This document shows positions 5,605 to 32,358 of a stretch of 37,868 nucleotides of DNA, one piece after another. Source of the DNA: Candidatus Methanomethylophilaceae archaeon. GTDB lineage: Archaea; Thermoplasmatota; Thermoplasmata; Methanomassiliicoccales; Methanomethylophilaceae. Position numbers and translations under genes: made by a program. How positions within the stretch are numbered: position 1 is the first letter of the stretch; every line of letters begins with the position of its first letter. Location: contig JAFPVN010000164.1 in assembly GCA_017395275.1 (NCBI GenBank), forward strand, positions 1-37,868, given 5' to 3'. A model generated the notes under the pieces. It was not told the origin of the DNA and made no database searches. It worked only from the letters and a program-made list of their open reading frames with translations.

Positions 5605-7122
5605 TCAGTCGCGGGAGATGGTCTCGATGACCTTTCCGTCCCTGTTCTTGATGACCGCGGTCAGAGGCATCTTTCCGGGCAGGCTGTGGGTTGCACAGGA
5701 GTTGCACGGGTCATATGCCCTGAAGGCCATCTCGACCATGTTCAGGAGACCGGGGGAGACCTCGAAGTTGTGGATCAGACCCTTCGCGGCGTTCCTGACA
5801 TCGATGTTCATGGAACCGTTGTTGTTGGTTGTACCGACAACCAGGTTGCATGCGGTGACGATGCCGTTCTCGTCGCAGGTGTAGTCGTGCGTGAGGGTTC
5901 CTCTGGGGGCCTCGACGCATCCGACTCCGCGTCCTCCGGGGACGAGGTCGGTCTGCTTGATGTCTCCGTTGAGCAGGTCTGCGTGCTGAGCGTCCTCGAG
6001 GGTCTTCTCAGCGGCGTAGAGCAGCTCGATGACTCTTGCCCAGTGGGTCGCCAGGGTGAAGTGGACGGGTCCCTCGATTCCGAGGTCCTTGAAGAATCCA
6101 CGGTACTCCATGAGCGCGTCGTGGGCGAGCGGGGTGGAGATGTCCTTACAGACGTTGAGCCTGGACAGGGGGGTAGCTCTGTAGATACCGCTGTCGGGGC
6201 CCGCGTACAGTCCCTTGTATCCGATCTTCTTCAGGTAGGGGAACTTCTCGTAGGACCAGGGCTCGGCTGCCTCGGCGATGTTGTCGAGGTAGTCGTAGGG
6301 GTCGTACTTGGCGAACTCGTTACCCTTCTGGTCGACGACCTTGACGGGTCCGTCGTGGAACTCGAGGTTGTCGTCCTTGTTGACCAGTCCCATGTAGTAG
6401 GACTCCTGGTAGTACAGGTCGGGGTTCTTGATGATGTTGACGTAGTCCTCGTTGGACAGTACGACATCCTTCAGGACCTGCATCGAGGTCTGGGCGAACT
6501 TCACGAGCTGCTCCGCATATCCGACGATCTCCTTCTGCTCGGCGGCGTTGATTGCCTTGGTCACTCCGCCGGGAACTCCCATGACGGGGTGGGTTGCCTT
6601 TCCACCGATGATTGCCTGAATCCTCTGTGCCTGGGACCTTGCCCTGAGGACTGCTCCTCCGAGCTCGAGTCCGACACGTCCGACGACTCCCAGGACGTTC
6701 CTCTCCGCGGCGGGTGCTGCGGGTCCGCACACGAAGTCGGGCGCTGCCAGTGCGTAGAAGTGCGCGATGTGGCTGTGCACGAAGTGTGCGTGGTAGAACA
6801 GGTCCCTGATCAGGAACGCGGTCGGGGTCGGCTTTGCGTTGAAACATCCGTCGATTGCCTTGGTGGAGGCGAGGTGGTGTGCACCGGGGCAGACACCGCA
6901 GAGCCTTGCAGTGATCTGGTTGAGCTCTGTTACCTTCCTGCCGATGCAGAACCTCTCGAATCCCCTGAGCTCGGGAACCTGCCAGTAGGTGTTCTCGACG
7001 TTTCCGTTGTCATCAAGGAAGATCTCGATCTTTCCGTGTCCCTCGAGACGGGTGATCGGGTCGATCAGGATCCTCTTGGTGTCTACTTTCTTCTTCTCAT
7101 CCCAAATGATAGGTGCGGCCAT
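5605..7122 (-). CDS. mvhA: F420-non-reducing [NiFe] hydrogenase large subunit
   Basis: 505 aa. It has the N-terminal RLEGHGKI and RLCGVCPGAHH motifs and the C-terminal DPCNSCATH nickel-binding motif, followed by a 26-aa tail. GGAGGT lies upstream of the ATG at 7120-7122. Confidence 0.95.
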   Translation of the reverse strand: MAAPIIWDEKKKVDTKRILIDPITRLEGHGKIEIFLDDNGNVENTYWQVPELRGFERFCIGRKVTELNQITARLCGVCPGAHHLASTKAIDGCFNAKPTPTAFLIRDLFYHAHFVHSHIAHFYALAAPDFVCGPAAPAAERNVLGVVGRVGLELGGAVLRARSQAQRIQAIIGGKATHPVMGVPGGVTKAINAAEQKEIVGYAEQLVKFAQTSMQVLKDVVLSNEDYVNIIKNPDLYYQESYYMGLVNKDDNLEFHDGPVKVVDQKGNEFAKYDPYDYLDNIAEAAEPWSYEKFPYLKKIGYKGLYAGPDSGIYRATPLSRLNVCKDISTPLAHDALMEYRGFFKDLGIEGPVHFTLATHWARVIELLYAAEKTLEDAQHADLLNGDIKQTDLVPGGRGVGCVEAPRGTLTHDYTCDENGIVTACNLVVGTTNNNGSMNIDVRNAAKGLIHNFEVSPGLLNMVEMAFRAYDPCNSCATHSLPGKMPLTAVIKNRDGKVIETISRD

Positions 7123-7123
7123 G

Positions 7124-8338
7124 TCACTGACCTCCTTCTTTGACTGACCTTGCGATCAGTGCCTTAGACATCGTGTAGGCATAGAAGTATCCGAGCGGAT
7201 CCTTGATGCTCGACATGATGTCGATAATCTTGTCCTCTTTGCATGTGGGGTCCTCTTCAAGGATGGGGAACAGCGATGCGACTGCGGTGAAGACCGATGC
7301 ACCGTGCTCTGTGACCTTGTCAGTGGGTCCGTAGCATCCGCGGCAGGGCTGGCCGACACGGGTACACTTGGCACCGCATCCGCCGACGGTCGCGGCTCCG
7401 AGACACAGGATTCCCTGGTCCATCAGACACTTGTCGGGATCGATGTTGACCTGATAGGGCTCCTTGATCTCGTCGAGTCTCTTGTTCTCCTTGTGCCTGG
7501 GGCACTCCTCGCAGAGGGTCCTCTTGGTGACTCCGATGTGGGTTCCCTTCGGGGGCAGCGCAACGCCCTTGTAGACGAATGCGACGACCGCGTCGAGGAG
7601 CTGTCCGAGGGTCTCCTGGGTAGGGGGGCATCCGGGGACGTAGTAGTCCACGTCGATGACCTGGTCCAGGCTCTTTACCCTGTTGTAGAGAGTGGGGAGG
7701 GTCAGGTGTCCCTCGGGGACGTCGATCTCGGTCTGGGGCACGTGGGGCTTGTCGGGGTACGCCTCGCAGAATGCCTTGGAGGTGGGCGTCTGGTTGTAGA
7801 CGTAGTCCAGGACCTCCTTGGATCCGCCGGGGATCAGGTTGGCCAGGGCGGGGGTTCCGCCGAAGCAGGCGCAGGAACCATAGGCGACGACGAGCTGGGA
7901 CTTCTGCCTGAGCAGCCTGACCATGTGCTCGTTCTCCGCGTTCCTCACTGCACCGTTGATGAGCGAGACGGTGATAGAACCGTCCTCCATCTCCTCGATG
8001 TCCTTCTCCTTTCCGTCAGCTGCGACAGGCCACATGACAATGTCTGCCATCGCGCCGACGTTCAGGACCTTCTCATCGGAATCCAGAACGGAAACGTCGC
8101 ATCCACCGCATGCTGCTGCCCAGTAGATTGCGAGCTTGATCTTTCCGCCCTCGGGTGCTCCGAGACCGGGAACGTATCCGGGGATGGGCTGGTTGGCGTC
8201 GGTCTCAGCGTAGATCGATCCGCCCATGCTGGATGCTCCGGCCGCCGCGGGTGCGGCTGCGGGTGCTGCCGCGGGTGCGGCGTCCTTCTTCTTGTCTTTC
8301 TTCTTGAATAGGTTGCTGAAGAATCCCATCTTACTCAT
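7124..8338 (-). CDS. mvhG: F420-non-reducing hydrogenase small subunit with N-terminal extension
   Basis: 404 aa. The small-subunit core starts at KIKLAIYWAAACGGCD, and further FeS cysteines (GSCACFGG, PGCPP, CLGAATVGGCGAKC) are present. The ATG at 8336-8338 overlaps the mvhD stop by 8 nt. About 65 residues precede the core. Confidence 0.85.
   Translation of the reverse strand: MSKMGFFSNLFKKKDKKKDAAPAAAPAAAPAAAGASSMGGSIYAETDANQPIPGYVPGLGAPEGGKIKLAIYWAAACGGCDVSVLDSDEKVLNVGAMADIVMWPVAADGKEKDIEEMEDGSITVSLINGAVRNAENEHMVRLLRQKSQLVVAYGSCACFGGTPALANLIPGGSKEVLDYVYNQTPTSKAFCEAYPDKPHVPQTEIDVPEGHLTLPTLYNRVKSLDQVIDVDYYVPGCPPTQETLGQLLDAVVAFVYKGVALPPKGTHIGVTKRTLCEECPRHKENKRLDEIKEPYQVNIDPDKCLMDQGILCLGAATVGGCGAKCTRVGQPCRGCYGPTDKVTEHGASVFTAVASLFPILEEDPTCKEDKIIDIMSSIKDPLGYFYAYTMSKALIARSVKEGGQ
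8244..8279. repeat. 12-bp tandem repeat x3 (encodes the Ala-Pro linker of MvhG)
   Basis: GCCGCGGGTGCG / GCTGCGGGTGCT / GCCGCGGGTGCG, read on the minus strand as AAP-AAAP-AAAP-AAA. Confidence 0.7.
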
Positions 8339-8750
8339 CTCCCTTTACGAGCGGGGTGGGTCCGAGCGCCTTGATGGTGTCGACGAACTCACAAATGGTC
8401 TTCTGGAACTTCTCTCCCTCGGAAGCGGAAACCCACTCGAGTTTCAGCCTTCTGGGGTCGAATCCGTACTGCTCGAGAACCATCCTCAGGAGGGCGATTC
8501 TCCTTCTTGCCCTGTAGTTACCGCCGATGTAGTGGCAGTCTGCGGGGTGGCATCCGAGGATCATGACTCCGTCCGCTCCCTTGGAGAACGCCCTGAGGAC
8601 GTGCTCGGGGTCGACACGTGCGGAGCACATGGTCCTGATGATACGGAAGTTGGTGGGCATCTGGAGCCTTGCGACTCCTGCACCGTCAGCTCCCGCGTAG
8701 GAACACCAGTTGCAGCAGAACGTTACGATTCTGGGCTCGAAGTCTGCCAT
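8331..8750 (-). CDS. mvhD: methyl-viologen-reducing hydrogenase delta subunit
   Basis: 139 aa. FCCNWCSYAGADGAG...GCHPADCHY is the MvhD/FlpD signature. Its ATG directly abuts the hdrA stop (TGAATG). Confidence 0.95.
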   Translation of the reverse strand: MADFEPRIVTFCCNWCSYAGADGAGVARLQMPTNFRIIRTMCSARVDPEHVLRAFSKGADGVMILGCHPADCHYIGGNYRARRRIALLRMVLEQYGFDPRRLKLEWVSASEGEKFQKTICEFVDTIKALGPTPLVKGDE

Positions 8751-11700
8751 TCACTCGCCTCCCACGGGGTAGTCGAGGCAGGCATCGATCTCTGCCTGGA
8801 TCTGGATGTTCTTGAATCCCTTCTGCTCCATAGCTCCGGACGGGCATGCTGCGACACAGCATCCGCATCCCTTACAGAGACCTGCGTTGACGTTGGACTT
8901 CAGTTTACCGTCCTTGGAGACGATGGTGATTGCCTTGTACTCGCAGCATCCCTCGCACACTCCGCATCCGTCGCAGTAGTCCTCGTTGACTGAAGCGACG
9001 ATACCCTCGGAGGTGAGGAACTTCTTGGAGATGATGGTCAGGGCCCTGGAGGCTGCTCCGGATCCCTGTGCGATACACTCGTCCATGTGCTTGGGCCAGT
9101 GGGCGAGTCCTGCTACGTAGACACCCTCGGTCGCGAAGTCGACGGGCCTGAGCTTCTGGTGAGCCTCGAAGTAGAATCCGTCCTTGGAGATCGGGACCTT
9201 CACCATCTTGGCGAGCTCCTCCTTCTCCTCGCGTGCGGGTGCGATACCGTTGCTCAGAACGACACAGTCAACGGGGACGGAGACGTCGGCGCCGAGAGTG
9301 AGGTCGAACGCGGTAACGGTGTTGCCGTCGTATGCGGGCAGGGGTGCCTCCTCGTCGTACCTGAGGAACCTGACTCCGACCTCGGATGCCTTCCTGTACA
9401 TCTCCTCGCGGAATCCGTAGGTCCTGATGTCCTTGTGGAAGATGGTGACGTTGGCGGTGGGGTCTGCGAGCTTGATCTGGATCGCGTTCCTCAGAGCGGT
9501 GGTACAGCAGACACGTGAGCAGTATCCGACGGACTCGTTCCTGGAACCGACGCACTGGATGAATGCGACGTTCTTTTTGTTGAACTTGCCGTCCGCGATC
9601 GCCTGCTCGCACTCGAGTCCGGTCATGACCTTCGCGTCAGAGCCGTAGTTGTACTCGGTGGGCTTGTATGCGGGTGCACCGACTGCGAAGATGACTGCTC
9701 CGACAGGCTCGTCGGTTCCGTCCTCGAGCTGGAGGTTGAAGTTTCCGACGAATCCGGGGATGTCCTTGACCTTTGCGTTGAGGTGGACCTTGATCAGGTT
9801 GTTGGAGTTGACCTTGTCGATGAGGCCCTTGACGAACTCGAGGGTGTCGACACCGTTCTCCTTGTGCCTGAAGTTGAGCGCCTGTCCTCCCAGCTGTCCC
9901 TCCCTCTCGACGAGGTGGACCTCGAATCCCTGTGCGGCGATGTCGAGTGCGGTGGTCATACCGGTGATACCTCCACCGATGACTGCTGCCTTCTGGGTGA
10001 CGGGGATCTTTGCTCCCTCGAGAGGCTCGAGGAGGCATGCCTTTGCGATTGCCATCCTGACGAGGTCCTTTGCCTTCTTGGTTGCGGCTTCGGGCTCGTG
10101 CATGTGGATCCAGGAACACTGGTCACGGATGTTGGCCATGTTGAAGAGGTACTGGTTGAGTCCTCCCTCACGGCATGCGATCCTGAACAGGGGCTCGTGG
10201 GTCCTGGGTGTGCATGATGCGACGACTACACGGTTGAGGTCGTGCTCCTTGATTGCGGCGGAGATGGCCTGGAGGGTGTCCTGTGCGCATGCGTACATCG
10301 TCTTGGTCGCGTAGACCACGTGCGGCAGGGTGCCGGCGTATGCTGCAACGGAGGGGACGTCTACTGTGGCACCGATGTTGATACCGCACTCGCAGACCCA
10401 GACACCCACACGGGGCTCCTTGCCTGCAACGTCCTTCTCTGCGGGGTACTGCTTGGGGGCGCAGGGCTCGAAGTTCTCATCGACGATGTATGCTCCGGCC
10501 TTTGCGGATGCTCCCGAAGACTCGGCGACGGTGGTCGGGATGTCCTTGGGTGCGGAGAATGCTCCGGACACGAGGATACCGGGCCTGGTGGTCTCGAGGG
10601 GCTTGAATACCGAGGTCTCACAGAATCCGTACTCGTTGAGTCCGATTCCGAGGACTTTGGCGAGTTCCTCAGCTCCCTCCGGCGGGTTGAGTCCGATGGA
10701 GAGAACGACGAGGTCGTACTCTGCGGAAGTTCCGTTTCCGTCCTTGTCGGTGTAGTTGATGGTGAGCTTCTTGGTCTCGGGGTCCTCCTCGACGTTGGAG
10801 ACACGGGCTCCCCTGTGCATGATGATTCCGTACTGGCCCTGGGCCCTCTTGATGTAGGCCTCGAACTCCTTTCCGTAGGACCTGATGTCCATGAAGAAGA
10901 TGTCCTCCTGGACCTGTGCGTGCTCCTTGGTGATGATTGCCTGCTTGGTCGCGTACATACAGCAGACGGACGAGCAGTACTTCTTCCAGTTCTTCTTCTC
11001 GGACCTGGATCCGCAGCACTGGATGAATGCGATCTTCTGGGGTGCCTCACCGTTGGACGGGCACTTGATGTGTCCGTGGTCAGGACCGGATGCGCACATC
11101 ATCCTCTCGTACTCCATGGAGGTGACGACGTTGTCGTATCTGCCGTATCCGTACTCGGTCGCATAGCCTGCGTCCCAGAGCTGGAATCCGACGGCGGCGA
11201 TGATGGATCCTACCTCGAGGACCTCTTCCTCCTCCTTGTCGGCGTAGTTGATTGCTCCCTTCTTACAGGTCTTCTCACAGATTCCGCACTTGCCGTTGAG
11301 AATCATCTTACAGTAGTTGGGGTCGATGAGAGCGACCCTGGGAACTGCCTGTGCGTGAGGGATGTAAATTGCCTTCCTGGTGGTGAGTCCGTACTCGAAC
11401 TGGTCGGGGATGTTCTTGGTGGGACACTTAGCGACACAGTCACCGCAGCCGGTACACTCTTTGAGCTTGACGTACCTGGGCTTCTTCTTGACCGTGACCT
11501 TAAAGTCTCCAGCCTCTCCGTCGACCTTAACAACCTCTGAGTAGGACATGACCGTGATGTTGGGGTGACCCGCACAGTCTGCCATCTTAGGGGAGAGGAT
11601 ACAAGCGGAACAGTCATTCGTAGGGAAAGTCTTGTCGAGACGGCACATCTTTCCACCGATTGTGGGGTCTTTCTCCACAAGGTAGACATGGATATCCCTG

Positions 11701-11768
11701 TCTGCAAGATCCAACGAAGCCTGGATACCTGCGATTCCTCCACCGATAACCAATGCTGATTTAGTCAT
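8751..11768 (-). CDS. hdrA: heterodisulfide reductase subunit A, long tandem-module form
   Basis: 1005 aa with two FAD-binding loops (VIGGGIAGIQASLDLA at aa 7 and VIGGGITGMTTALDIA at aa 596). Also present are FPTNDCSACILSPK, an inserted 2x[4Fe-4S] ferredoxin (CTGCGDCVAKCP, CGICEKTC), two copies of the IQC.GSR...CS..CC motif, and a C-terminal ferredoxin (CDGCGVCEGCC, CKGCGCCVAACP). A strong GGAGGT lies upstream. Confidence 0.95.
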   Translation of the reverse strand: MTKSALVIGGGIAGIQASLDLADRDIHVYLVEKDPTIGGKMCRLDKTFPTNDCSACILSPKMADCAGHPNITVMSYSEVVKVDGEAGDFKVTVKKKPRYVKLKECTGCGDCVAKCPTKNIPDQFEYGLTTRKAIYIPHAQAVPRVALIDPNYCKMILNGKCGICEKTCKKGAINYADKEEEEVLEVGSIIAAVGFQLWDAGYATEYGYGRYDNVVTSMEYERMMCASGPDHGHIKCPSNGEAPQKIAFIQCCGSRSEKKNWKKYCSSVCCMYATKQAIITKEHAQVQEDIFFMDIRSYGKEFEAYIKRAQGQYGIIMHRGARVSNVEEDPETKKLTINYTDKDGNGTSAEYDLVVLSIGLNPPEGAEELAKVLGIGLNEYGFCETSVFKPLETTRPGILVSGAFSAPKDIPTTVAESSGASAKAGAYIVDENFEPCAPKQYPAEKDVAGKEPRVGVWVCECGINIGATVDVPSVAAYAGTLPHVVYATKTMYACAQDTLQAISAAIKEHDLNRVVVASCTPRTHEPLFRIACREGGLNQYLFNMANIRDQCSWIHMHEPEAATKKAKDLVRMAIAKACLLEPLEGAKIPVTQKAAVIGGGITGMTTALDIAAQGFEVHLVEREGQLGGQALNFRHKENGVDTLEFVKGLIDKVNSNNLIKVHLNAKVKDIPGFVGNFNLQLEDGTDEPVGAVIFAVGAPAYKPTEYNYGSDAKVMTGLECEQAIADGKFNKKNVAFIQCVGSRNESVGYCSRVCCTTALRNAIQIKLADPTANVTIFHKDIRTYGFREEMYRKASEVGVRFLRYDEEAPLPAYDGNTVTAFDLTLGADVSVPVDCVVLSNGIAPAREEKEELAKMVKVPISKDGFYFEAHQKLRPVDFATEGVYVAGLAHWPKHMDECIAQGSGAASRALTIISKKFLTSEGIVASVNEDYCDGCGVCEGCCEYKAITIVSKDGKLKSNVNAGLCKGCGCCVAACPSGAMEQKGFKNIQIQAEIDACLDYPVGGE

Positions 11769-13001: not shown

Positions 13002-13712
13002 ATGCAACCAGGACAAATGGCTTATGACAGGGGAATCACAGTTTTCTCCCCTGACGGAAGACTCTTCCAGGTAGAGTATGCCCGCGAAGCGGTCAAGAAG
13101 GGAACCACCACGATCGGACTCAAGTTCAAGGACGGTGTCATCCTCATCGTTGACAAGCGCGTCTCGAGCAAGCTCGTGGAGCCCAAGTCCATCGAGAAGA
13201 TCTACGACATCGACAAGTACATCGGATGCGCAACGTCCGGTCTGGTCGCCGATGCGAGGATCCTCGTCGACGAGGCGAGAAAGAACGCTCAGATCCACAA
13301 GGTCACCTACAACGAGAACATCACCGTCGAGGCGCTCGTCAAGAAGATCTGCGACCTCAAACAGAACTATACCCAGTACGGCGGGGCACGCCCCTTCGGT
13401 ACCGCCCTCCTGATGGCGGGAGTCGACGACCTCGGCTGCCACCTCTTCGAGACGGACCCCTCGGGAGCCCTCAGCGCATACAAGGCGGACAGCATCGGTT
13501 CCGGCCGTCCCGCTGTCCTCGACGTGTTCGAGAAGGAGTTCACCGACGGCATGTCCTACGAGGACGCCATGCTCCTCGGACTCAAGGCACTCAAGGCGGC
13601 GATCGAGGACACCCCCTCCGCGGCTACCGTGGAGATAGGAGTGGTCAAGATCGACGAACCCTTCAGAAGACTCTCCGAAGAGGAAGTCGCGAAGTTCATC
13701 GAAAAGCTCTGA
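13002..13712 (+). CDS. psmA: proteasome subunit alpha
   Basis: 236 aa. [31 protein letters not shown] is the canonical alpha-subunit N-terminus. AAGGAG lies 8 nt upstream. Confidence 0.97.
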
Positions 13713-13717
13713 GTAAC

Positions 13718-14413
13718 ATGGTCAATCTGGACGATGCGATAGTTGCCCGTCTCGAGACGTACGGAGAGACGTTCGAGATCCTCCTGGACCCTGCCGCGAT
13801 GAACCTCATCAAGGCAGGCAAGGAGATCGACCTGCTGGAATACCTGGCGGTGGAGGATGTGTTCAACAACGCCAGGAAGGGCACCCGCCCCACCGAGGAG
13901 ATGATCGCCAAGGCGTTCGGCACCTCGGATATCAAGGAGATAGCGCAGAAGATAATCTCCAAGGGAGAGGTGCAGATCACCGCGGAGCAGAGGAAGGAGA
14001 TGCTCCAGGCGAAGAAGAAGCAGATCGTGGCATACATCGCGGCCAACGCCATCAACCCCCAGACCAAACTCCCCCATCCCCCGCTCAGGATAGAGCTGGC
14101 ACTGGATGAGGCGAAGTTCCACACCGACCCCTTCAAGCCCGTGGACAAGCAGGTCGAGGAGGCCATGCACCTCCTCAGGCCGATCCTGCCCATCAGGTTC
14201 GAGAAGACCAAGGTGGCGGTGCGCCTGAAGGGCGACGACTACGGCAGATGCTACGACGACCTTATCCACTTCGGTATCGTGGAGAAGGAGGAGTGGCAGG
14301 CCGACGGCTCGTGGATAGGTCTCATGGAGATACCCGCCGGATTGATCACGGAACTGACCAGCAAGCTGAACAGCAAGACCAAGGGCAACGCCGCGGTCAA
14401 GGCTATCCAGTAA
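13718..14413 (+). CDS. SBDS/Sdo1 family ribosome maturation protein
   Basis: ORF 13226..14413 trimmed to ATG 13718 ([25 protein letters not shown]). This is an SBDS-like N-terminal domain in the conserved position after psmA. Confidence 0.9.
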
Positions 14414-14440
14414 TCCAACATAACATTCGAGAGTGATAAA

Positions 14441-15133
14441 ATGGAAAGAAGAAACGCCAAGCCCAAGCGCGAACTCGTGCTTCCCGGCGACCTGCTCGAT
14501 TCAACCGGAGCGAAGGTCGGGGAGTACGCCTACGAGAGGGATGGCAACGTATACGCCGCCGTTCTGGGGATCAAGAACGTGACCCCCGCCGGCGTCGGAG
14601 TAATCCCCCTCCACGGACAGTACATGCCCGTCGCAGGGGATCTCGTGATCGGAACGATAAACGACATAGGACCGTCCAACTGGATGGTCGACATCAACGC
14701 GCCCTACCCCGCGCCGCTCCACGTGAGCGAGGTGCCGTGGAAGGTCGAGTTCGGGGACACCTCCAGATTCCTCAACATAGGGGACGTCGTGCTCCTCAAG
14801 GTCCTTTCCGTGGACGAGAGCAAGAAGATACAGGTCACGATGAACGACGCGGGACTCAGGAAGATCGAGGGCGGAATGCTCGTGGAGATCTCCCACACCA
14901 AGGTCTCGAGGGTGATCGGAAAGAGCGGATCCATGATCCAGATGCTCAAGAACATGTCCGACTGCCGCATAACCGTCGGTCAGAACGGAAGGATCTGGAT
15001 CGACGGAGAGGGCGAGAGCGCCGAAGCGGTGGCGGATGCTATCAAGATGATCGAGGAGGAGGCGCAGTCGCACAACCTCACCGAGAGGATCAAAGAATTT
15101 TTGGAGAAAAGGCTCCCGGCAGAGGAGGAGTGA
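14441..15133 (+). CDS. rrp4: exosome complex RNA-binding protein Rrp4 (S1 + KH)
   Basis: 230 aa with VLPGDLL at the N-terminus and a KH-like [13 protein letters not shown]. Its position upstream of rrp41 also fits. Confidence 0.9.
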
Positions 15134-15135
15134 AA

Positions 15136-15882
15136 ATGAGTGGACACACCGATATGGTTTTAGTTGACGATAACGGCATGAGGATCGATGGCAGGACCGC
15201 CACCGAGCACAGGCCGATCAAGATCGAGGCCGGCGTACTGAAGAATGCCGACGGATCAGCATACGTAGAGATTGGAAAGAACAAGGTGCTCGCAGCGGTC
15301 TACGGACCCAGGGAGTGCCACCCCAGACACCTGCAGGACCCCAACAAGGCGGTCATCCAGTGCAAGTACAACATGCAGGCGTTCTCGGTCAGCGACCGTA
15401 AGAGACCCGGAACCGACAGGAGGTCCATCGAGATCTCCAAGATCACCGCCGAGGCACTCGAGAACGTCGTCCTCACCGAGCTCTACCCCCGCGCGTCCAT
15501 CGACGTGTACATCGAGATCCTCCAGGCGAACGCAGGTACCAGGTGCGCCGGTCTCACCGCCGCATCCGTCGCACTCGCCGACGCTGGGATCCCCATGAGG
15601 GACATCGTCCCCGCCATCGCCGCCGGTAAGGCGGACGGCCACGTCCTCCTCGACCTCAACAAGGAAGAGGACAACTACGGACAGGCGGACGTCCCCATCG
15701 CGCTCGTCCCCTCCACCGACGAGATCGTCCTCCTCCAGATGGACGGTAACATGACCAGGGAGGAGTTCGACAGGGCCATCAGCCTCGCCGTGAACGCATG
15801 CCACGAGGTCTACGACCTCCAGAAGGACGCCCTCAAGAGACGCTACGCCGTCAAGAAGGAGGAGGCTGAGTCCGATGAGTAA
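15136..15882 (+). CDS. rrp41: exosome complex exonuclease Rrp41 (RNase PH fold)
   Basis: ORF 14737..15882 trimmed to ATG 15136 ([45 protein letters not shown]), 2 nt after the rrp4 stop. Confidence 0.95.
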
Positions 15883-16648
15883 TGAAGTCATATCACAGAT
15901 CAAGCGCGACCACATCGTCAACCTCCTCGAGAAGGGGACCAGGACGGACGGACGCTCCCCCAAGGACATCAGGGAGATCCAGGTCACAACCAACTGCATA
16001 GAGTCCGCGGACGGATCCGCAAGGGTCAAGCTCGGAAACACCGAGGTCATCGCGGGAGTCAAGATCATACCCGGAACACCCTTCCCGGACACCCCCAACT
16101 CGGGAGTGCTCACCACCGGTGCCGAGCTCATCCCCATGGCGCACGCCTCGTTCGAGTCCGGTCCCCCGGGAGAGGACGCGATCGAGCTGGCACGTGTCGT
16201 CGACCGCGGAATCAGGGAGTCGGGAATGGTGGATGTCGAAGGGCTGTGCATCACCCCCGGAGAGGAGGTATGGATGTGCTTCATCGACATGTACGCACTG
16301 GACTACGACGGCAACCTGTTCGACGCATCGAACCTGGCGGCGGTCATGGCCCTCAGGACCGCGATCATACCCGGAGAGCAGTACGGCAAGGGAGAGAACA
16401 AGCCCCTGCCCATCACCTGCACGCCGATATCTGTCACGTCCTGCAAGATAGGAAATACTTTAATACTTGACCCAAATTTCGACGAGGAACACATTGCCTC
16501 GGCACGCCTGACGGTTACGACCGACGACAACGGCAACTTCAGGGCGATGCAGAAGGGCGGAAAGGGTTCGATCACTCTCGACGAACTCAGCCAGTGCCTG
16601 GATGCCGCGGTCGAGAAGGGCAAGGAAATCAGAAAGATCATCGGGTGA
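15875..16648 (+). CDS. rrp42: exosome complex component Rrp42 (inactive RNase PH fold)
   Basis: 257 aa. The sequence [36 protein letters not shown] fits the family. It overlaps the rrp41 stop by 8 nt. Confidence 0.9.
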
Positions 16649-28293: not shown

Positions 28294-28454
28294 AGTACTG
28301 ACTCTCCCGACATTGGGTGTCCCCGCCTAAGTGGAGGTTGTTTATAAAGGTATTGTTCCCCGCTCCCCGAACACACACGGTATATTATCCCTTATAGCGG
28401 ACCGAAGTTAAAAGGCCATAAATAGGGGTGGGTGCATGGGGGTCGGAGACAACC

Positions 28455-29543
28455 ATGATCAGATTCGGACCAGCAGGTATTCCGCTCTCATGCAAGGGAC
28501 GCACGCTCAAGGACGGCATCGAGGACATCCACAACCTCAGCCTGACCGCCATCGAGGTACAGATGGTGCGCCCGAACGTAACCGAGGTCTACCCGGACGA
28601 GGACATCGTCGGAAAGACGATGAGCACCGTCGAGGACGTCATGGCCCTCGAGATCCTCAGGGACGACGAATCCATCACCGACCCCAACGAGCCCATAGAG
28701 GAGGACGACGTGCTCGTCTGCATGTCATCCACCATCGCCAACAACTTCGGCGAGCTCACGACCATCGGGACGATGGCGAAGAGGCTCGACGTGGCGGTCT
28801 CCATGCACACGCCCAACTACATCGACCTCGGTACGAACAGCCCGCTCACCGAGACCTGCATGAACGCCATCAGACACGCCGGTCTCATGGTCAACGCCCT
28901 CCAGGGAGACGTCGTAGTCACCAATCTGGGTCTTTACGACGGCAAGATGTCCGAGGAGGAGATCGACGAGAACATCTTCAACAACCTCGCCGACATAGTC
29001 GACTGGTGGCTGGACACCGGCCTCAAGCCCAAGATCGGTATCGAGGTCACCGGACGCAAGGACGTCTTCGGAAGCCTGGAGCAGATCCTCGACCTCTGCG
29101 ACGCCTTCGACGGCACGGTCATCCCTGTGCTCAACTTCCCCCACTACCACTCACGCACCAACGGATCCCTGGTGGACGTCAGCGACTTCGAGAACGTCAT
29201 CCAGCAGGTCCTGCCCTACAACAACGGCAAGCTCTACGCCCACTTCGCGGGGGTCGAGCACGCCGACGGCAACGAGCTCAGGCTCACCCCCATCAAGAAG
29301 GGCGACCTCAAGTTCGAGCTGCTCGGGGACTGCCTCGCGGAGAGCCGCCCCGAGGCGACCATCATCTCCTCGTCGCCCCTTCTGGAGCACGACGCGATGT
29401 ACATGAGGATCATCTACGAGAGGATGGTCAACAAGAGGGTCGCCAAGAACCTCAGGGCGAGGAAGAAGAAGGAGATCGAGGCCGCCGCAGCTGCAGCCGC
29501 TGCCGCGGAGGCCGCGGAAGAGGAAGATTCCTCCAAAGAGTGA
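28455..29543 (+). CDS. endonuclease IV-like TIM-barrel protein with acidic insertion and low-complexity tail
   Basis: ORF 28428..29543 starts with GTG and was trimmed to ATG 28455. MIRFGPAGIPLSCKGRTLKDGIEDIHNL is the typical archaeal EndoIV-like N-terminus, and SMHTPNYIDL is also present. The C-terminus reads KKKEIEAAAAAAAAAEAAEEEDSSKE. Confidence 0.75.
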   Translation: MIRFGPAGIPLSCKGRTLKDGIEDIHNLSLTAIEVQMVRPNVTEVYPDEDIVGKTMSTVEDVMALEILRDDESITDPNEPIEEDDVLVCMSSTIANNFGELTTIGTMAKRLDVAVSMHTPNYIDLGTNSPLTETCMNAIRHAGLMVNALQGDVVVTNLGLYDGKMSEEEIDENIFNNLADIVDWWLDTGLKPKIGIEVTGRKDVFGSLEQILDLCDAFDGTVIPVLNFPHYHSRTNGSLVDVSDFENVIQQVLPYNNGKLYAHFAGVEHADGNELRLTPIKKGDLKFELLGDCLAESRPEATIISSSPLLEHDAMYMRIIYERMVNKRVAKNLRARKKKEIEAAAAAAAAAEAAEEEDSSKE

Positions 29544-29545
29544 CC

Positions 29546-30091
29546 ATGGACTACAGGGAATCCGTAGGCTCGCTGATGGATGCCGTCCGCAAGGTGGCGG
29601 AGGGCGTACCCCAGAGAGATCTGGACGTTCTCATCGACAGCATCCTTGAAGGCGGGAAGATCTTCATCTACGGTTCGGGAAGGTCCGGTCTGGTCGGACA
29701 GTACTTCTCGGTCAGGTTGGTACAGCTGGGAAGGGACGACGTCCATTTCGTCGGCGACATGACCACCCCCATCATCGGCAAGGGCGACGTGGTGATCCTC
29801 ATATCCAACACCGGGGAGACCATGTCCGCGGTCCAGACCGCCAACATCGCAAGGCGCATGGGCGCGGACGTCATATGCGTCACATCGTCCCGCATGAGCA
29901 AGCTGGCACATGCATCTAACCACGTCATCTCCCTCGACACCAGGGTGGAGCACGACAGGAACATCGCGCCCCTAGGTACCCTGTTCGAGGACGCCGTCGT
30001 CATGATGTTCGACGGCATGATCCCGCTCCTGATGGAACGTCTCGGCGCCACCGAGGACGACATGCGCAAGAGGCATGCCATCTGGGTCTGA
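29546..30091 (+). CDS. hxlB: SIS-domain protein, probable 6-phospho-3-hexuloisomerase
   Basis: ORF 28436..30091 trimmed to ATG 29546 (MDYRESVGSLMDAV...). SIS motifs IFIYGSGRSG and LISNTGET are present. Length is 181 aa. Confidence 0.75.
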   Translation: MDYRESVGSLMDAVRKVAEGVPQRDLDVLIDSILEGGKIFIYGSGRSGLVGQYFSVRLVQLGRDDVHFVGDMTTPIIGKGDVVILISNTGETMSAVQTANIARRMGADVICVTSSRMSKLAHASNHVISLDTRVEHDRNIAPLGTLFEDAVVMMFDGMIPLLMERLGATEDDMRKRHAIWV

Positions 30092-30592
30092 TCACTGCAC
30101 GATGACCATCTGCGCCTTCTCTGGAATCTCGGAATTATCGAATACGGCGAACTCCCCGCGCAGAGGGTCTATGACCACGGCGAATCCCATCCCCCTGCCG
30201 AACACGGAATGCTGGGTGCTCACATCGGTATCGGACATGAAGCATCCGCATCCCAGATGGGAATGGTACCACCCTACGATGTGCTCCCCCTCGGACATCC
30301 CGTCCACGCCGTCGATCAGCTCGGACATGCCCTCGGGATCGAACCTCACACCGTCGGAATCCGCGATCCTGTCGGACGTTATCACGCGTTCCACCACCGC
30401 GTACTCCCCGGAATCATCGCGGTAGGCCCTCCCTATCATCAGGCCCATGGTCTCCGAATCGCGCATGGCATCGTCGTCCGCGGCCTGTATCATGGTCTCC
30501 GCGGCGGATTCGGCGATGAAGAGACTGACCCCTCTGACGGACCTCCTGCGGAATTCAGGTTCCGCATCCTCGGAAGAGATTACCCGGACCAT
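30092..30592 (-). CDS. JAB1/MPN/Mov34 (JAMM) metalloprotease, Rpn11-like
   Basis: 166 aa with an intact JAMM motif: E47 (SETMG) and H110-S-H112-x7-S120-x2-D123 (GWYHSHLGCGCFMSDTD). Its ATG lies 1 nt after the E2 stop. Confidence 0.85.
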   Translation of the reverse strand: MVRVISSEDAEPEFRRRSVRGVSLFIAESAAETMIQAADDDAMRDSETMGLMIGRAYRDDSGEYAVVERVITSDRIADSDGVRFDPEGMSELIDGVDGMSEGEHIVGWYHSHLGCGCFMSDTDVSTQHSVFGRGMGFAVVIDPLRGEFAVFDNSEIPEKAQMVIVQ

Positions 30593-30593
30593 G

Positions 30594-31073
30594 TCAATCC
30601 GACCCGTACTCCACCCTGCCGCGGAACTTCGAATCGTGGTCGGCGAAGAACCTTGCCGCCTCCATGCACGATTCCGTACCGAACGGGCTCATGGGATTGG
30701 GATTGGAGACCAGGAAGCTCAGGCTCTTGAGGAAGGCCGGCAGGCGGGTGTTGAACTCCCATTCGTTCAGCATCTTGGTGCAGACGTAACCCCCATCGGA
30801 GGGGTCCATGATGTTGGGATGGAAGATCTGGGTCTTCCACCTGACCTCCGGTTTCTTGAAGCCGTAGTCCTCGGTCAGCACTATATAGAAATCGTGCTCC
30901 GTGATGATCCTGTCGGCGGTCTCGTGGGCCACCACGTTGCTCATGTGCATGTCGATGCGTATCGGGAACTCGGCCTTCTCGGCATCGAACTCGAACTCGG
31001 AACCGAGGTACTCCTCGCAGTCCTTCAGCTCCCTGCCGATCCTTCTCAGCAGAACCGCCTTGGGGAGCCCCAT
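30594..31073 (-). CDS. ubiquitin-conjugating enzyme E2 (UBC fold)
   Basis: 159 aa, starting at the internal ATG 31071-31073 of ORF 30594..31721. It has an E2-like helix 1 (LLRRIGRELKDC), YGFKKPEVRW, the FHPNI (HPN) motif, Cys98 in GGYVCTKMLNEW, and NPNPMSP. It aligns by eye with UbcH5-type E2s. Confidence 0.85.
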   Translation of the reverse strand: MGLPKAVLLRRIGRELKDCEEYLGSEFEFDAEKAEFPIRIDMHMSNVVAHETADRIITEHDFYIVLTEDYGFKKPEVRWKTQIFHPNIMDPSDGGYVCTKMLNEWEFNTRLPAFLKSLSFLVSNPNPMSPFGTESCMEAARFFADHDSKFRGRVEYGSD

Positions 31074-31315
31074 CGGCACCCGCCTTCCGGATCCGGGATC
31101 AGCTCCAGGACATCCTCGTTGATGAGACCGATCTCCGATGCCGACTCCGAACCGCGCAGCAGCCTCTTCCCCTTCTTGAGGACGTAGGCGCCCTCCTTCA
31201 GCTTCCAGAACTCCGCTGCGGATTCGATGATGTCGCTGACGCTGTCGGACGGTTCGACCTCCACCCTGATGGTGGAGCCGTTCGTCAGGTTCTTCACGGT
31301 TATCTTCAATGACAT
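31046..31315 (-). CDS. ubiquitin-like beta-grasp protein, pro-form (GG plus 10-aa tail)
   Basis: 89 aa. Compare MSLKITVKNLTNGSTIRVEVEPSDSVSDII with ubiquitin [26 protein letters not shown]. Gly78-Gly79 (31079-31084) is followed by CRWGSPRRFC. GGAGGA lies upstream, and the ATG is 3 nt after the E1 stop. Confidence 0.8.
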   Translation of the reverse strand: MSLKITVKNLTNGSTIRVEVEPSDSVSDIIESAAEFWKLKEGAYVLKKGKRLLRGSESASEIGLINEDVLELIPDPEGGCRWGSPRRFC

Positions 31316-31318
31316 TCC

Positions 31319-32113
31319 TTATTCCTCCGTGTGATTGGGACACTGAGGGTCCCTGTCCAAATCCAATGTGAACACCGTTCCGGCGGTGCCGTCGTAATAC
31401 GTCACGCCTTCCACAGTTAAATCCTGTCTGTCCGAGGCTATCTTCATCGTCTCCCTGACCTCCATCGCGGCTATCACGGCCGTGGTGGTTATGTCGGATG
31501 CGGTATGGGGGACGAACACGGACGAGCTGCCAGTGCACGTGAACCTCCTCTCCAGCGCCTTGGCATGGGAACGGTTGGATGCGCACTGGAGGCACGGACC
31601 TCCCGGGAGGACGACCTGGAGCTTGCCCATCATGCCGTCCGTCGCACCGTCCACGTACGGTATCCCGAGACCGCAGGCGGTGGCGTTCAGATGCATCCTG
31701 GCGAGGATGTTGTCCAGGCATCCGACGATGATGTCATAGTTCCAGGACTCCATGTCTTGTATCCTGCCGACGATCGGACGTATCTCCGCATCGGGATCCA
31801 GTTCGGATGCCCTCGATGCGACGATCTCCGACTTCATGCCCGAATGTACGTCAGAATCCCTGAAGAAGAGGCACCTGCTCAGATTGGAGAGGACCACATC
31901 GTCCATGTCGATGACGTCTATGTGCCTGAAACCGGAGAGGACCAGGTCCTTCACGACCTCGTTCCCCAGCGCCCCAGCGCCGGCGACCAGCACCCTGCAT
32001 GAGGCTATCCCGTCCATGTCGACCCATTCGATGCGTCTCTGACGGTCGTGCCTGTCGCGGTCCGATGCGCCCGCGGTTACGGTGTCCATGGAACGGAATC
32101 CCGATATGCGCAT
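31319..32113 (-). CDS. E1-like (ThiF/MoeB/UBA family) adenylyltransferase
   Basis: ORF 31319..32233 trimmed to ATG 32111-32113, which is equidistant from the shared TATA. An alternative ATG lies at 32089. Motifs are VLVAGAGALGNEVVKDL, IDMDDVVLSNLSR, CLDNILARMHLN, GPCLQC and CPNH. Confidence 0.85.
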   Translation of the reverse strand: MRISGFRSMDTVTAGASDRDRHDRQRRIEWVDMDGIASCRVLVAGAGALGNEVVKDLVLSGFRHIDVIDMDDVVLSNLSRCLFFRDSDVHSGMKSEIVASRASELDPDAEIRPIVGRIQDMESWNYDIIVGCLDNILARMHLNATACGLGIPYVDGATDGMMGKLQVVLPGGPCLQCASNRSHAKALERRFTCTGSSSVFVPHTASDITTTAVIAAMEVRETMKIASDRQDLTVEGVTYYDGTAGTVFTLDLDRDPQCPNHTEE

Positions 32114-32134
32114 ATAAGACCCTGCGGTGGCAGG

Positions 32135-32142
32135 ATTATATA
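32135..32142. promoter_or_regulatory. shared TATA-like element between the E1 operon and the divergent Zn-ribbon gene
   Basis: ATTATATA is centred about 25.5 nt from both ATG 32113 (minus) and ATG 32164 (plus), within a 50-nt spacer. Confidence 0.45.
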
Positions 32143-32163
32143 GCGAAAAGCAATCACGAGGGT

Positions 32164-32358
32164 ATGGCCCTGAAACTGCCGGAACACTCCCATTGCGCCT
32201 ACTGCGGGGACCCCATACCGTTCGACAGGGCATACTGCAGCGAGGAATGCCTCGAGAAGCACAAGAGGGAGACGCGCAGGACTAACATCAGGGACATAGC
32301 GTTCTACGTCACCGTCGGAGTGGCCCTCTGCGTGCTCGCGTTCAGGTTCATGTTCTGA
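32164..32358 (+). CDS. small Zn-ribbon protein with C-terminal TM helix (DUF2116-like)
   Basis: ORF 31999..32358 trimmed to ATG 32164 (MALKLPEHSHCAYCGDPIPFDRAYCSEEC...). The Zn ribbon is C-x2-C-x9-C-x3-C, followed by a basic linker and a hydrophobic tail IAFYVTVGVALCVLAF. Length is 64 aa. Confidence 0.65.
   Translation: MALKLPEHSHCAYCGDPIPFDRAYCSEECLEKHKRETRRTNIRDIAFYVTVGVALCVLAFRFMF

Follow-up and report, generated by a model that had tools for sequence, protein, structure and literature searches.

The DNA analysed here, termed the window, is a stretch of 37,868 nt on contig JAFPVN010000164.1 of a Candidatus Methanomethylophilaceae archaeon, and its positions 30092-32113 carry, on the minus strand, four intact and tightly packed genes in the order E1-Ubl-E2-JAB. 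These encode an E1-like adenylating (activating) enzyme, a ubiquitin-like modifier (Ubl), an E2 conjugating enzyme and a JAB/JAMM metalloprotease. The presence of this ubiquitin-type gene set is confirmed and is well supported by sequence, fold and conservation; its activity and role are predicted.

The operon and its gene products

The genes and their candidate expression signals are located as follows.

31319-32113, minus strand: E1-like adenylating enzyme, open reading frame of 264 aa
31046-31315, minus strand: Ubl, open reading frame of 89 aa
30594-31073, minus strand: UBC-fold E2, open reading frame of 159 aa
30092-30592, minus strand: Rpn11-like JAB/MPN+ metalloprotease, open reading frame of 166 aa
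32135-32142, no strand assigned: palindromic TATA-box-like element TATATAAT/ATTATATA, read directly from the sequence
31079-31087, minus strand: Shine-Dalgarno-like Glu-Gly-Gly codons of Ubl, GAAGGCGGG, 5 nt 5' of the E2 ATG

A recheck of the reading frames bore out the first-pass annotation, a reading of the letters alone, which had described four consecutive minus-strand frames joined by a 3-nt gap (E1/Ubl), a 28-nt overlap (Ubl/E2) and a 1-nt gap (E2/JAB); every motif coordinate given there matches the window sequence. The methanogen-type genome, the order of the genes and the lack of a RING gene inside the operon were all found as described, and none of the refuting outcomes listed there arose when they were checked. 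The GC content of the operon (0.59-0.60) equals that of its flanks. The start of the E1 gene is ambiguous, and gene callers on identical contigs take Met9 (32089), which gives 256 aa; because conservation begins at residue 18, the 264-aa and 256-aa starts are both possible.

The TATA-like element sits in the 50-nt divergent intergenic spacer (32114-32163) between the E1 gene and a DUF2116 gene, with its centre ~26 nt 5' of the E1 ATG at 32113. This position fits a leaderless or short-leader archaeal transcript, and a single element of this kind could serve both genes. Within the operon, the codons of the Ubl conjugation site double as the apparent ribosome-binding site of E2. The pattern GA(A/G)GGNGG stands 0-12 nt (usually 4-8) before the E2 start in nearly all related loci L001-L083, L081 being the exception, which suggests that the Glu-Gly-Gly codons may act in translational coupling of Ubl and E2. 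A programmed -1 frameshift in the 28-nt overlap, which would produce a Ubl-E2 fusion comparable to the natural fusion P0082, was also considered and was rejected, the overlap having no slippery heptamer.

The E1 belongs to the Pfam family ThiF (profile search, E 1.4e-44) and shows the following motifs.

31964-31981, minus strand: GAGALG of E1, sequence read
31697-31714, minus strand: DNILAR of E1, sequence read
31529-31543, minus strand: F-T-C193-T-G in the E1 crossover loop, with Cys193 as the proposed thioester cysteine

Conservation was counted over 66-79 orthologues per protein, reaching down to ~40% identity, and the catalytic residues of E1, E2 and JAB are conserved in at least 90% of them (most in at least 98%). 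In the 66 E1 orthologues, R24, GAGALG, D134-N135, R139, C174xxC177, C193 and C258 reach at least 98%, with Cys193 invariant, while R21, H261 (of C258xxH261) and an R-x-x-R-Q motif reach at least 90%; the ATP loop, the Mg-binding Asp, the Arg finger, the Zn site and Cys193 are thereby all retained. From a partial alignment with UBA3 and the supplement of PMC5654768, we infer that Cys193, located 16 residues past the CxxC, matches the crossover-loop catalytic cysteine of UBA3 (FPMCTIA) and of the Caldiarchaeum E1. The closest sequences in the PDB are UBA3 (3.7e-25), then Uba1 and SUMO UBA2, ahead of MoeB (1.5e-16) and ThiF (1.9e-15), and the stretch SGFRxIxVIDMD is nearly identical in UBA3. Identity with the Caldiarchaeum E1 is 39% across the 171-aa adenylation core, in an alignment that extends only to the CxxC. 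All NCBIfam cut-offs for MoeB, ThiF and UbaA are missed by a wide margin (TIGR02356, 100.6 bits against 275; NF004281, 82.6 against 266; TIGR02355, 65.2 against 377; NF047750 for UbaA, 77.3 against 450). The enzyme therefore stands outside the MoeB/ThiF sulfur-carrier group and nearer to the E1s of NEDD8, ubiquitin and SUMO, and elsewhere its gene is always accompanied by Ubl-E2-JAB, never by molybdopterin or thiamine genes. Its chain ends 3 residues beyond the second Zn motif, C258xxH261, and ~30 residues lie between the CxxC and the helix TTTAVIAA; therefore there is no Cys-domain insertion and no ubiquitin-fold domain (UFD), and the protein is a lone, MoeB-sized adenylation domain of 256-264 aa.

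The second gene encodes a precursor that can be divided into two parts.

31079-31315, minus strand: mature Ubl, residues 1-79, C-terminus IPDPEGG, defined by alignment with ubiquitin, GG on GG
31046-31078, minus strand: 10-residue pro-peptide CRWGSPRRFC and stop codon, overlapping the E2 start by 28 nt

In the phmmer alignment, Ubl residues 3-79 are placed on ubiquitin 1-76 and G78-G79 on G75-G76, with the further pairs G49-K50/G47-K48, L46/I44 and I73/V70; the Pfam model TUG-UBL1 gave a marginal 23.2 bits. The 89-aa product had been compared with ubiquitin in the first-pass annotation, and its AlphaFold (AF2) model is indeed a ubiquitin-type beta-grasp, with the strand and helix order of ubiquitin and a predicted local distance difference test score (pLDDT) of 80. 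Foldseek against the PDB returned SUMO1, ubiquitin, NEDD8 and Caldiarchaeum ubiquitin as the best matches, at template modelling (TM) scores of 0.75-0.80 and root-mean-square deviations of ~1.2-1.4 A over 74 residues for ubiquitin and SUMO1 and ~2-3 A for NEDD8 and Caldiarchaeum ubiquitin, and neither ThiS nor MoaD was among the top 50. In a 25-sequence alignment (A2), I73-E77 (I-P-D-P-E), K50 and G79 are invariant and G78 is conserved in at least 90%; every full-length Ubl of the surveyed loci has D-P-x-G-G at this position, with PDPEGG in all but one. In many species the GG is the extreme C-terminus, and elsewhere it is followed by 1-14 unconserved residues. The tail CRWGSPRRFC, disordered in the model (pLDDT <50), exists because the TGA of relatives (L009, tgcTGATG) is CGA in the window (tgcCGATG), so that translation reads into the E2 gene. 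For comparison, Caldiarchaeum pro-ubiquitin has a 9-residue tail after the GG (GG-CGEPIRRAA), which is cut off by Rpn11 (PMC5654768).

The third product is assigned to Pfam UQ_con (PF00179) with E 2.1e-12 and 47.3 bits against a cut-off of 27, and a precomputed PF00179 match exists for all 21 close E2 homologues. The active-site positions are the following.

30813-30821, minus strand: HPN of E2 (H85-P86-N87), sequence read
30780-30782, minus strand: catalytic-position Cys98 of E2, sequence read

The closest PDB sequence is Rad6/Ubc2 (E 1.3e-9). The AF2 model, a predicted and not a solved structure, has pLDDT 89.7, and its Foldseek top 50 in the PDB consists almost entirely of eukaryotic E2 chains (UbcH7, UbcH5, Rad6, Ubc13, Ubc9) at probability 1.0; the best-superposed chains reach TM 0.6-0.66, and the alignments span 138-161 columns. 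All 79 orthologues carry F-H-P-N, C98 and W105, and at least 98% of them have P125-N126; H85-P86-N87 and C98 are also invariant in a separate 18-sequence set. The motifs YGFKKPEV (loop 4) and NPNPMSP (loop 8) are retained. Identity is 27% with UBE2D3 (BLASTP; residues 9-150) and 29% with the Caldiarchaeum E2 across 95 aa. The protein thus scores and folds as a UBC domain with invariant HPN and Cys98; the earlier claim of likeness along the whole length stands for the fold (Foldseek, and BLASTP over residues 9-150), whereas the Pfam alignment takes in residues 62-138 only. Two further cysteines were observed in E2: C136 in the last helix (30666-30668), invariant in 79 orthologues, and the near-invariant Cys19 in helix 1. 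Canonical eukaryotic E2s are not known to have equivalents of Cys136 and Cys19.

The last gene product is a Pfam JAB protein (E 2.7e-11; 43.8 bits against a cut-off of 22.5) with a complete JAMM centre.

30224-30265, minus strand: JAMM motif HSHLGCGCFMSDTD, H110-x-H112-x7-S120-x2-D123 of JAB
30452-30454, minus strand: Glu47 of JAB

At least 98% of 70 orthologues retain each of E47, H110, H112, S120 and D123. The closest PDB sequences are Rpn11 (1.4e-10), the Caldiarchaeum Rpn11-like protease 6fjv (2.1e-8) and CSN5, and the score against the NCBIfam desampylase model NF041370 is 36.3 bits, below its cut-off of 130.

Distribution and genomic setting

Relatives were collected by a scan of one genome per GTDB species, which yielded 282, and locus counts refer to the best 80 of these. 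All 80 belong to Methanomassiliicoccales or to other Thermoplasmata/Thermoplasmatota, the hosts including Methanomethylophilaceae, Methanoplasma, Methanogranum, Methanarcanum and Methanomicula, and the loci come almost all from metagenome-assembled genomes. The 21 close E2 clusters recovered by a word-indexed search all stem from metagenome assemblies of Methanomethylophilaceae type, and a HMMER search of 1.84 billion representatives gave 21 E2 clusters at E <= 1e-30 and 95 at E <= 1e-10. Of the 80 loci, 65 have the genes in the order E1-Ubl-E2-JAB, and a contig end truncates 6 of the remaining 15. The E2 relatives from the HMMER search include a natural Ubl-GG-E2 fusion (P0082) and two E2-JAB fusions, one with a degenerate HxH (P0070) and one intact (P0093); such fusions tie the functions of Ubl, E2 and JAB together independently of the operon.

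Three loci were deposited under bacterial names, namely L017 (Anaerovoracaceae), L022 (Bacteroides salyersiae) and L023 (Eggerthellaceae), and carry the full archaeal E1-Ubl-E2-JAB-SIS-TIM block. They are probably mis-binned, because their layout is near-identical to that of Methanomethylophilaceae bins of the same study.

Conservation of the wider neighbourhood extends to loci whose E2 identity is as low as 66%. One flank holds larA, a CCG/4Fe-4S protein gene, dihydropteroate synthase and DUF2116; the other holds a SIS gene and a TIM-barrel gene, followed by rpl18e-rpl13-rps9-rpoN. The genes adjoining the operon in the window are these.

28428-30091, plus strand: HxlB-like SIS gene and 371-aa xylose-isomerase-like TIM barrel, convergent to the operon
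32164-32358, plus strand: DUF2116 protein of 64 aa (Pfam 'probable treble clef'), divergent from the E1 gene

The convergent HxlB-like SIS gene, whose product scores 149 bits with TIGR03127, slightly under the 160-bit cut-off, directly follows the operon in 62 of the 65 full loci, where the TIM-barrel gene too is convergent. No relative was detected when IMG/VR viral contigs were scanned with the E2 alignment. This syntenic housekeeping site beside the ribosomal-protein operon, shared by Methanomassiliicoccales and other Thermoplasmata, points to vertical inheritance of the operon and not to a defence island.

Known systems, rival explanations and the predicted cascade

The operons of Caldiarchaeum and the Asgard archaea are the closest in function and sequence type. 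It has been reported that Caldiarchaeum subterraneum (Aigarchaeota) encodes Ub, E2, E1 and a small RING protein in one operon with an adjacent Rpn11 (PMC3082918; PMC5654768), and structures of its Ub:Rpn11 are available (6fnn, 6fno, 6fjv). Shared with that system are a ubiquitin-fold Ubl with a post-GG tail starting with Cys (GG-CGEPIRRAA there, GG-CRWGSPRRFC here), an HPN-Cys UBC E2, a related E1 adenylation core, an Rpn11-like JAMM protease and the operon organisation. The differences are that the window locus has no RING gene, that its E1 lacks the ~60-aa Cys domain and the C-terminal ubiquitin-like domain, that its protease is the last gene of the operon whereas theirs is a divergent neighbour, and that the order is E1-Ubl-E2-JAB in a mesophilic Thermoplasmatota methanogen. 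The Asgard clusters, taken as prokaryotic kin of the eukaryotic system, likewise combine an E1 and a Ub-like modifier with either a UBC E2 or a ubiquitin E2 variant (UEV), but they are linked to ESCRT and RING genes and their E1 often has a UFD, whereas the neighbours here are ribosomal and metabolic. Of the features that define Caldiarchaeum/Asgard clusters I and II, the Gly-Gly Ubl and the linked JAMM are present at the window locus, and an E1 with Cys domain and UFD and a RING protein are absent; the earlier likening to a Caldiarchaeum/Asgard-type cassette holds for Ubl, E2 and the Rpn11-like JAMM and is qualified by the minimal E1. The Thermoplasmatota E2 clade has been placed as a separate deep branch of archaeal E2s, apart from Asgard and TACK (10.1101/2023.07.25.550441). 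Cluster III of PMC5654768 resembles the window in having an E1 without a UFD, but its E2s group with bacterial E2-like proteins, whereas the window E2 is of the UQ_con/HPN type.

Among eukaryotic systems, the NEDD8 pathway is comparable in that the E1 finds its best PDB match in UBA3 and that the E2 is of UBC type. The eukaryotic E1, however, is a heterodimer with Cys domain and UFD, and RING/cullin E3 ligases are absent here. The Ubl ends in PDPEGG, in contrast to the LRLRGG of ubiquitin. The C-terminal tail of NEDD8 is similar to that of ubiquitin.

An E1-E2 cascade is inferred in this family, and eukaryote-type protein tagging probably exists in Methanomassiliicoccales. The four genes would be expressed on one transcript starting near the E1 ATG and driven by the TATA-like element. 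The JAMM protease would cleave the 89-residue precursor after Gly79 and release CRWGSPRRFC, a trimming that would not be required in the many relatives whose Ubl gene already ends at the GG. A homodimeric, MoeB-sized E1 would adenylate Gly79 and then hold Ubl as a thioester on Cys193 of the crossover loop; Ubl would be handed to Cys98 of E2, with the Asn of HPN aiding catalysis, and E2 would move it to lysine side chains, either directly or with the help of an E3 from another locus. Since Lys50 is the invariant equivalent of Ub Lys48, chain formation is plausible, and this residue may permit Ubl chains. The same protease would finally take the tag off. The trim-then-charge scheme is supported by two precedents: after removal of the tail by Rpn11, the Caldiarchaeum E1 and E2 are modified in an ATP-dependent manner and conjugates form (PMC5654768), and in Bil an E1 that has no UFD binds and charges the E2 (PMC10557695).

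Several points weigh against this interpretation. The E1 has neither the Cys domain nor the UFD, the parts with which canonical E1s form the thioester and recruit the E2, and its architecture is that of E2-independent enzymes such as MoeB and UbaA. For the Ubl, the Pfam ubiquitin model gives 19.4 bits, short of its 25.4-bit threshold. In nine complete loci of more distant Thermoplasmata no E1 gene adjoins the cluster, which consists of Ubl-E2-JAB or E2-JAB, and no E3 gene was found within 6-8 kb in any locus. A role with the proteasome or Cdc48 is tentative, being drawn from context and analogy.

It is very unlikely that the operon is an antiviral, Bil-type conjugation system, in which Ubl would be put on virus proteins at infection and the JAB would serve as maturation enzyme. 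The first-pass annotation had observed that the same four-part list defines the Bil operons, and this is correct as far as the parts go (Ubl, E2, JAB, E1); in both there is no E3, the E1 has no UFD, and in Bil (types I and II) too the JAB strips variable residues beyond a conserved Gly (PMC10557695). The E1 also partially matches PADLOC CBASS E1-E2 models (best E 6.8e-12). The likeness goes no further: BilB has a Cys-His (CEHH) centre in place of HPN/UQ_con, BilD has an inactive and an active adenylation domain and a CYS domain where the window E1 is a 264-aa protein without the inactive domain or the CYS domain, and the Bil order Ubl-E2-DUB-E1, consistent in all surveyed type II operons and matching type I (PMC10557695), differs from the E1-Ubl-E2-JAB of the window and 65 loci. 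Bil operons stand in a defence context with CapH/CapP, whereas the present locus is core, syntenic across the order beside ribosomal-protein genes, of native composition, without defence genes nearby and without E2 relatives on IMG/VR viral contigs. E2 and Ubl match no PADLOC model and JAB does so only at 1.4e-3, an NCBIfam scan of the operon proteins gave no Bil or Cap equivalog, and Bil chains were absent from the PDB matches of E1 (E <= 1e-10) and JAB (E <= 0.01). As for type II CBASS with Cap2/Cap3, the PADLOC E1-E2 models cover only the E1 adenylation domain, and that partially; the E2 here is a separate gene without a PADLOC match, there is no E1-E2 fusion, and no CD-NTase gene occurs at the locus. 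Least probable of all is a sulfur-carrier system of the ThiS/MoaD/SAMP-UbaA/Urm1 kind, in which a Ubl thiocarboxylate would be used for tRNA thiolation or cofactor synthesis with E2 and JAB as accessories. The size and single-domain layout of the E1 are like those of MoeB, ThiF and UbaA, whose models are also its top NCBIfam matches, and SAMP/UbaA with HvJAMM1 in Haloferax and Urm1/ELSA in Sulfolobus likewise combine a small single-domain E1, a GG beta-grasp modifier and a JAMM protease; archaeal SAMP and Urm1 systems are, moreover, dual-function (reviewed in PMC11354881). Those systems, however, work without an E2 and use ThiS/MoaD/Urm1-like modifiers that double as sulfur carriers, whereas the window Ubl is ubiquitin-like, its best structural matches being ubiquitin, SUMO and NEDD8. 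The E1 scores far under the NCBIfam cut-offs and is nearer to UBA3, Uba1 and UBA2, no rhodanese, MoaE, ThiG or Ncs6 gene was found near the operon, and the conserved pairing with JAB and with a catalytically intact E2, always placed between the Ubl and JAB genes, departs from the E2-independence of sampylation. The window system is not Bil, CBASS or SAMP/UbaA.

A third explanation keeps the cascade and adds an E3 encoded elsewhere (RING, U-box or another treble-clef protein), giving a full, Caldiarchaeum-like E1-E2-E3 pathway; this is considered unlikely, although less so than the two preceding alternatives. It has been reported that a small RING protein belongs to the Caldiarchaeum and Asgard clusters, and that loops 4 and 7 of E2 serve in E3 binding and loop 8 in substrate recognition (PMC5654768); the window E2 keeps YGFKKPEV in loop 4 and NPNPMSP in loop 8, and a treble-clef Zn protein, DUF2116, is the divergent neighbour of the operon. 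Against this, a six-frame regular-expression search for the RING cross-brace found none in the window or in 84 related loci with 6-8 kb flanks, the pattern being a simple one that an atypical RING could escape; transfer would therefore be E3-independent or depend on an unlinked E3. DUF2116 itself was rejected as an E3 candidate: it has one Zn site (C-x2-C...C-x3-C) and a C-terminal membrane helix, it is transcribed divergently, and in L011 and L058 it stays with the dihydropteroate synthase gene, apart from the operon.

The operon is thus best regarded as encoding a minimal conjugation system of ubiquitin type that is chromosomal, vertically inherited and shared by Methanomassiliicoccales and related Thermoplasmata, and this reading, with the mechanism set out above, is likely to be correct. 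Its weakest part is the role. A housekeeping function in turnover or regulation, through the archaeal proteasome or Cdc48, is tentatively preferred to virus defence because the location is core, syntenic and non-mobile. A more far-reaching version, in which an E3-independent HPN-E2 ubiquitin system is ancestral, serves housekeeping throughout the order (possibly the class) and builds K50 chains that lead to the proteasome or Cdc48, is possible but doubtful. If it were true, ubiquitin-type E1-E2 tagging would predate, or would have spread beyond, the TACK-Asgard-eukaryote lineage, and, the order having cultured members, a first in vivo study of archaeal ubiquitin could be possible.

Parts of this system have been recorded before. 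Some members are already named "ubiquitin-conjugating enzyme E2" (NCBI), "ubiquitin-protein ligase" (IMG) or "UBC core domain-containing protein" (UniRef, Ca. Sysuiplasma), and a 2023 preprint shows, in one tree and one sentence, a deep clade named "Ca. Thermoplasmatota E2" (10.1101/2023.07.25.550441). The archaeal ubiquitin toolkits listed earlier come only from Aigarchaeota, a group of Crenarchaeota and a single Marine Group II genome (Grau-Bové 2015). Apart from the preprint, no literature on a ubiquitin system in Methanomassiliicoccales, Methanomethylophilaceae, Sysuiplasma or Thermoplasmatota was found, the species in Supplementary Fig. 1 of PMC5654768 lying outside the scope of the search, and the searchable literature gives no account of the operon, its conservation across Methanomassiliicoccales, the minimal E1 or the absence of RING. 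With labelled members and the E2 clade on record, the system is better known than the first-pass annotation suggested. Among prokaryotes, a ubiquitin-fold tag with a UBC E2 has so far been reconstituted only from uncultured Caldiarchaeum and Asgard archaea, and the bacterial form is the antiphage Bil; here the same chemistry is apparently encoded, in stripped-down form, by a conserved core operon of an entire methanogen order found in gut, rumen, termites and sediment. If functional, it would offer a simpler and possibly cultivable model for the targets of archaeal ubiquitylation, a test of whether an E1 without UFD and Cys domain can charge a canonical E2, and a broader phylogenetic base for reconstructing the origin of the eukaryotic system.

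Other genes of the window and divergent relatives

The window is core methanogen chromosome, and besides a class I (Trp/Tyr-type) tRNA synthetase it carries the following genes.

5605-11768, minus strand: mvhA, mvhG, mvhD and a 1005-aa HdrA-like flavoprotein with two Rossmann-type FAD/NAD-binding regions
13002-16648, plus strand: proteasome alpha gene psmA, then an rrp4-like gene and at least one RNase PH-type exosome subunit gene

A link between psmA and the operon was considered and is not inferred, as psmA lies ~17 kb away within the usual archaeal superoperon. At the other end of the operon, the stop codons of the JAB and SIS genes abut with zero gap, and the 371-aa TIM barrel has an Ala/Glu-rich C-terminal tail (...EIEAAAAAAAAAEAAEEEDSSKE).

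Two divergent arrangements were observed among the relatives. E2 relatives of ~225 aa (listed with P0095, P0097 and P0101) join a Ubl-like domain without GG to a Cys-less, UEV-like E2 domain. On a distant Thermoplasmata-type contig, L067 (6844-8376), the gene after an E2 encodes a protein of 510 aa that has two intact JAB domains in tandem, acidic linkers and membrane helices at its C-terminus, and no recognisable Ubl or E1 gene adjoins.

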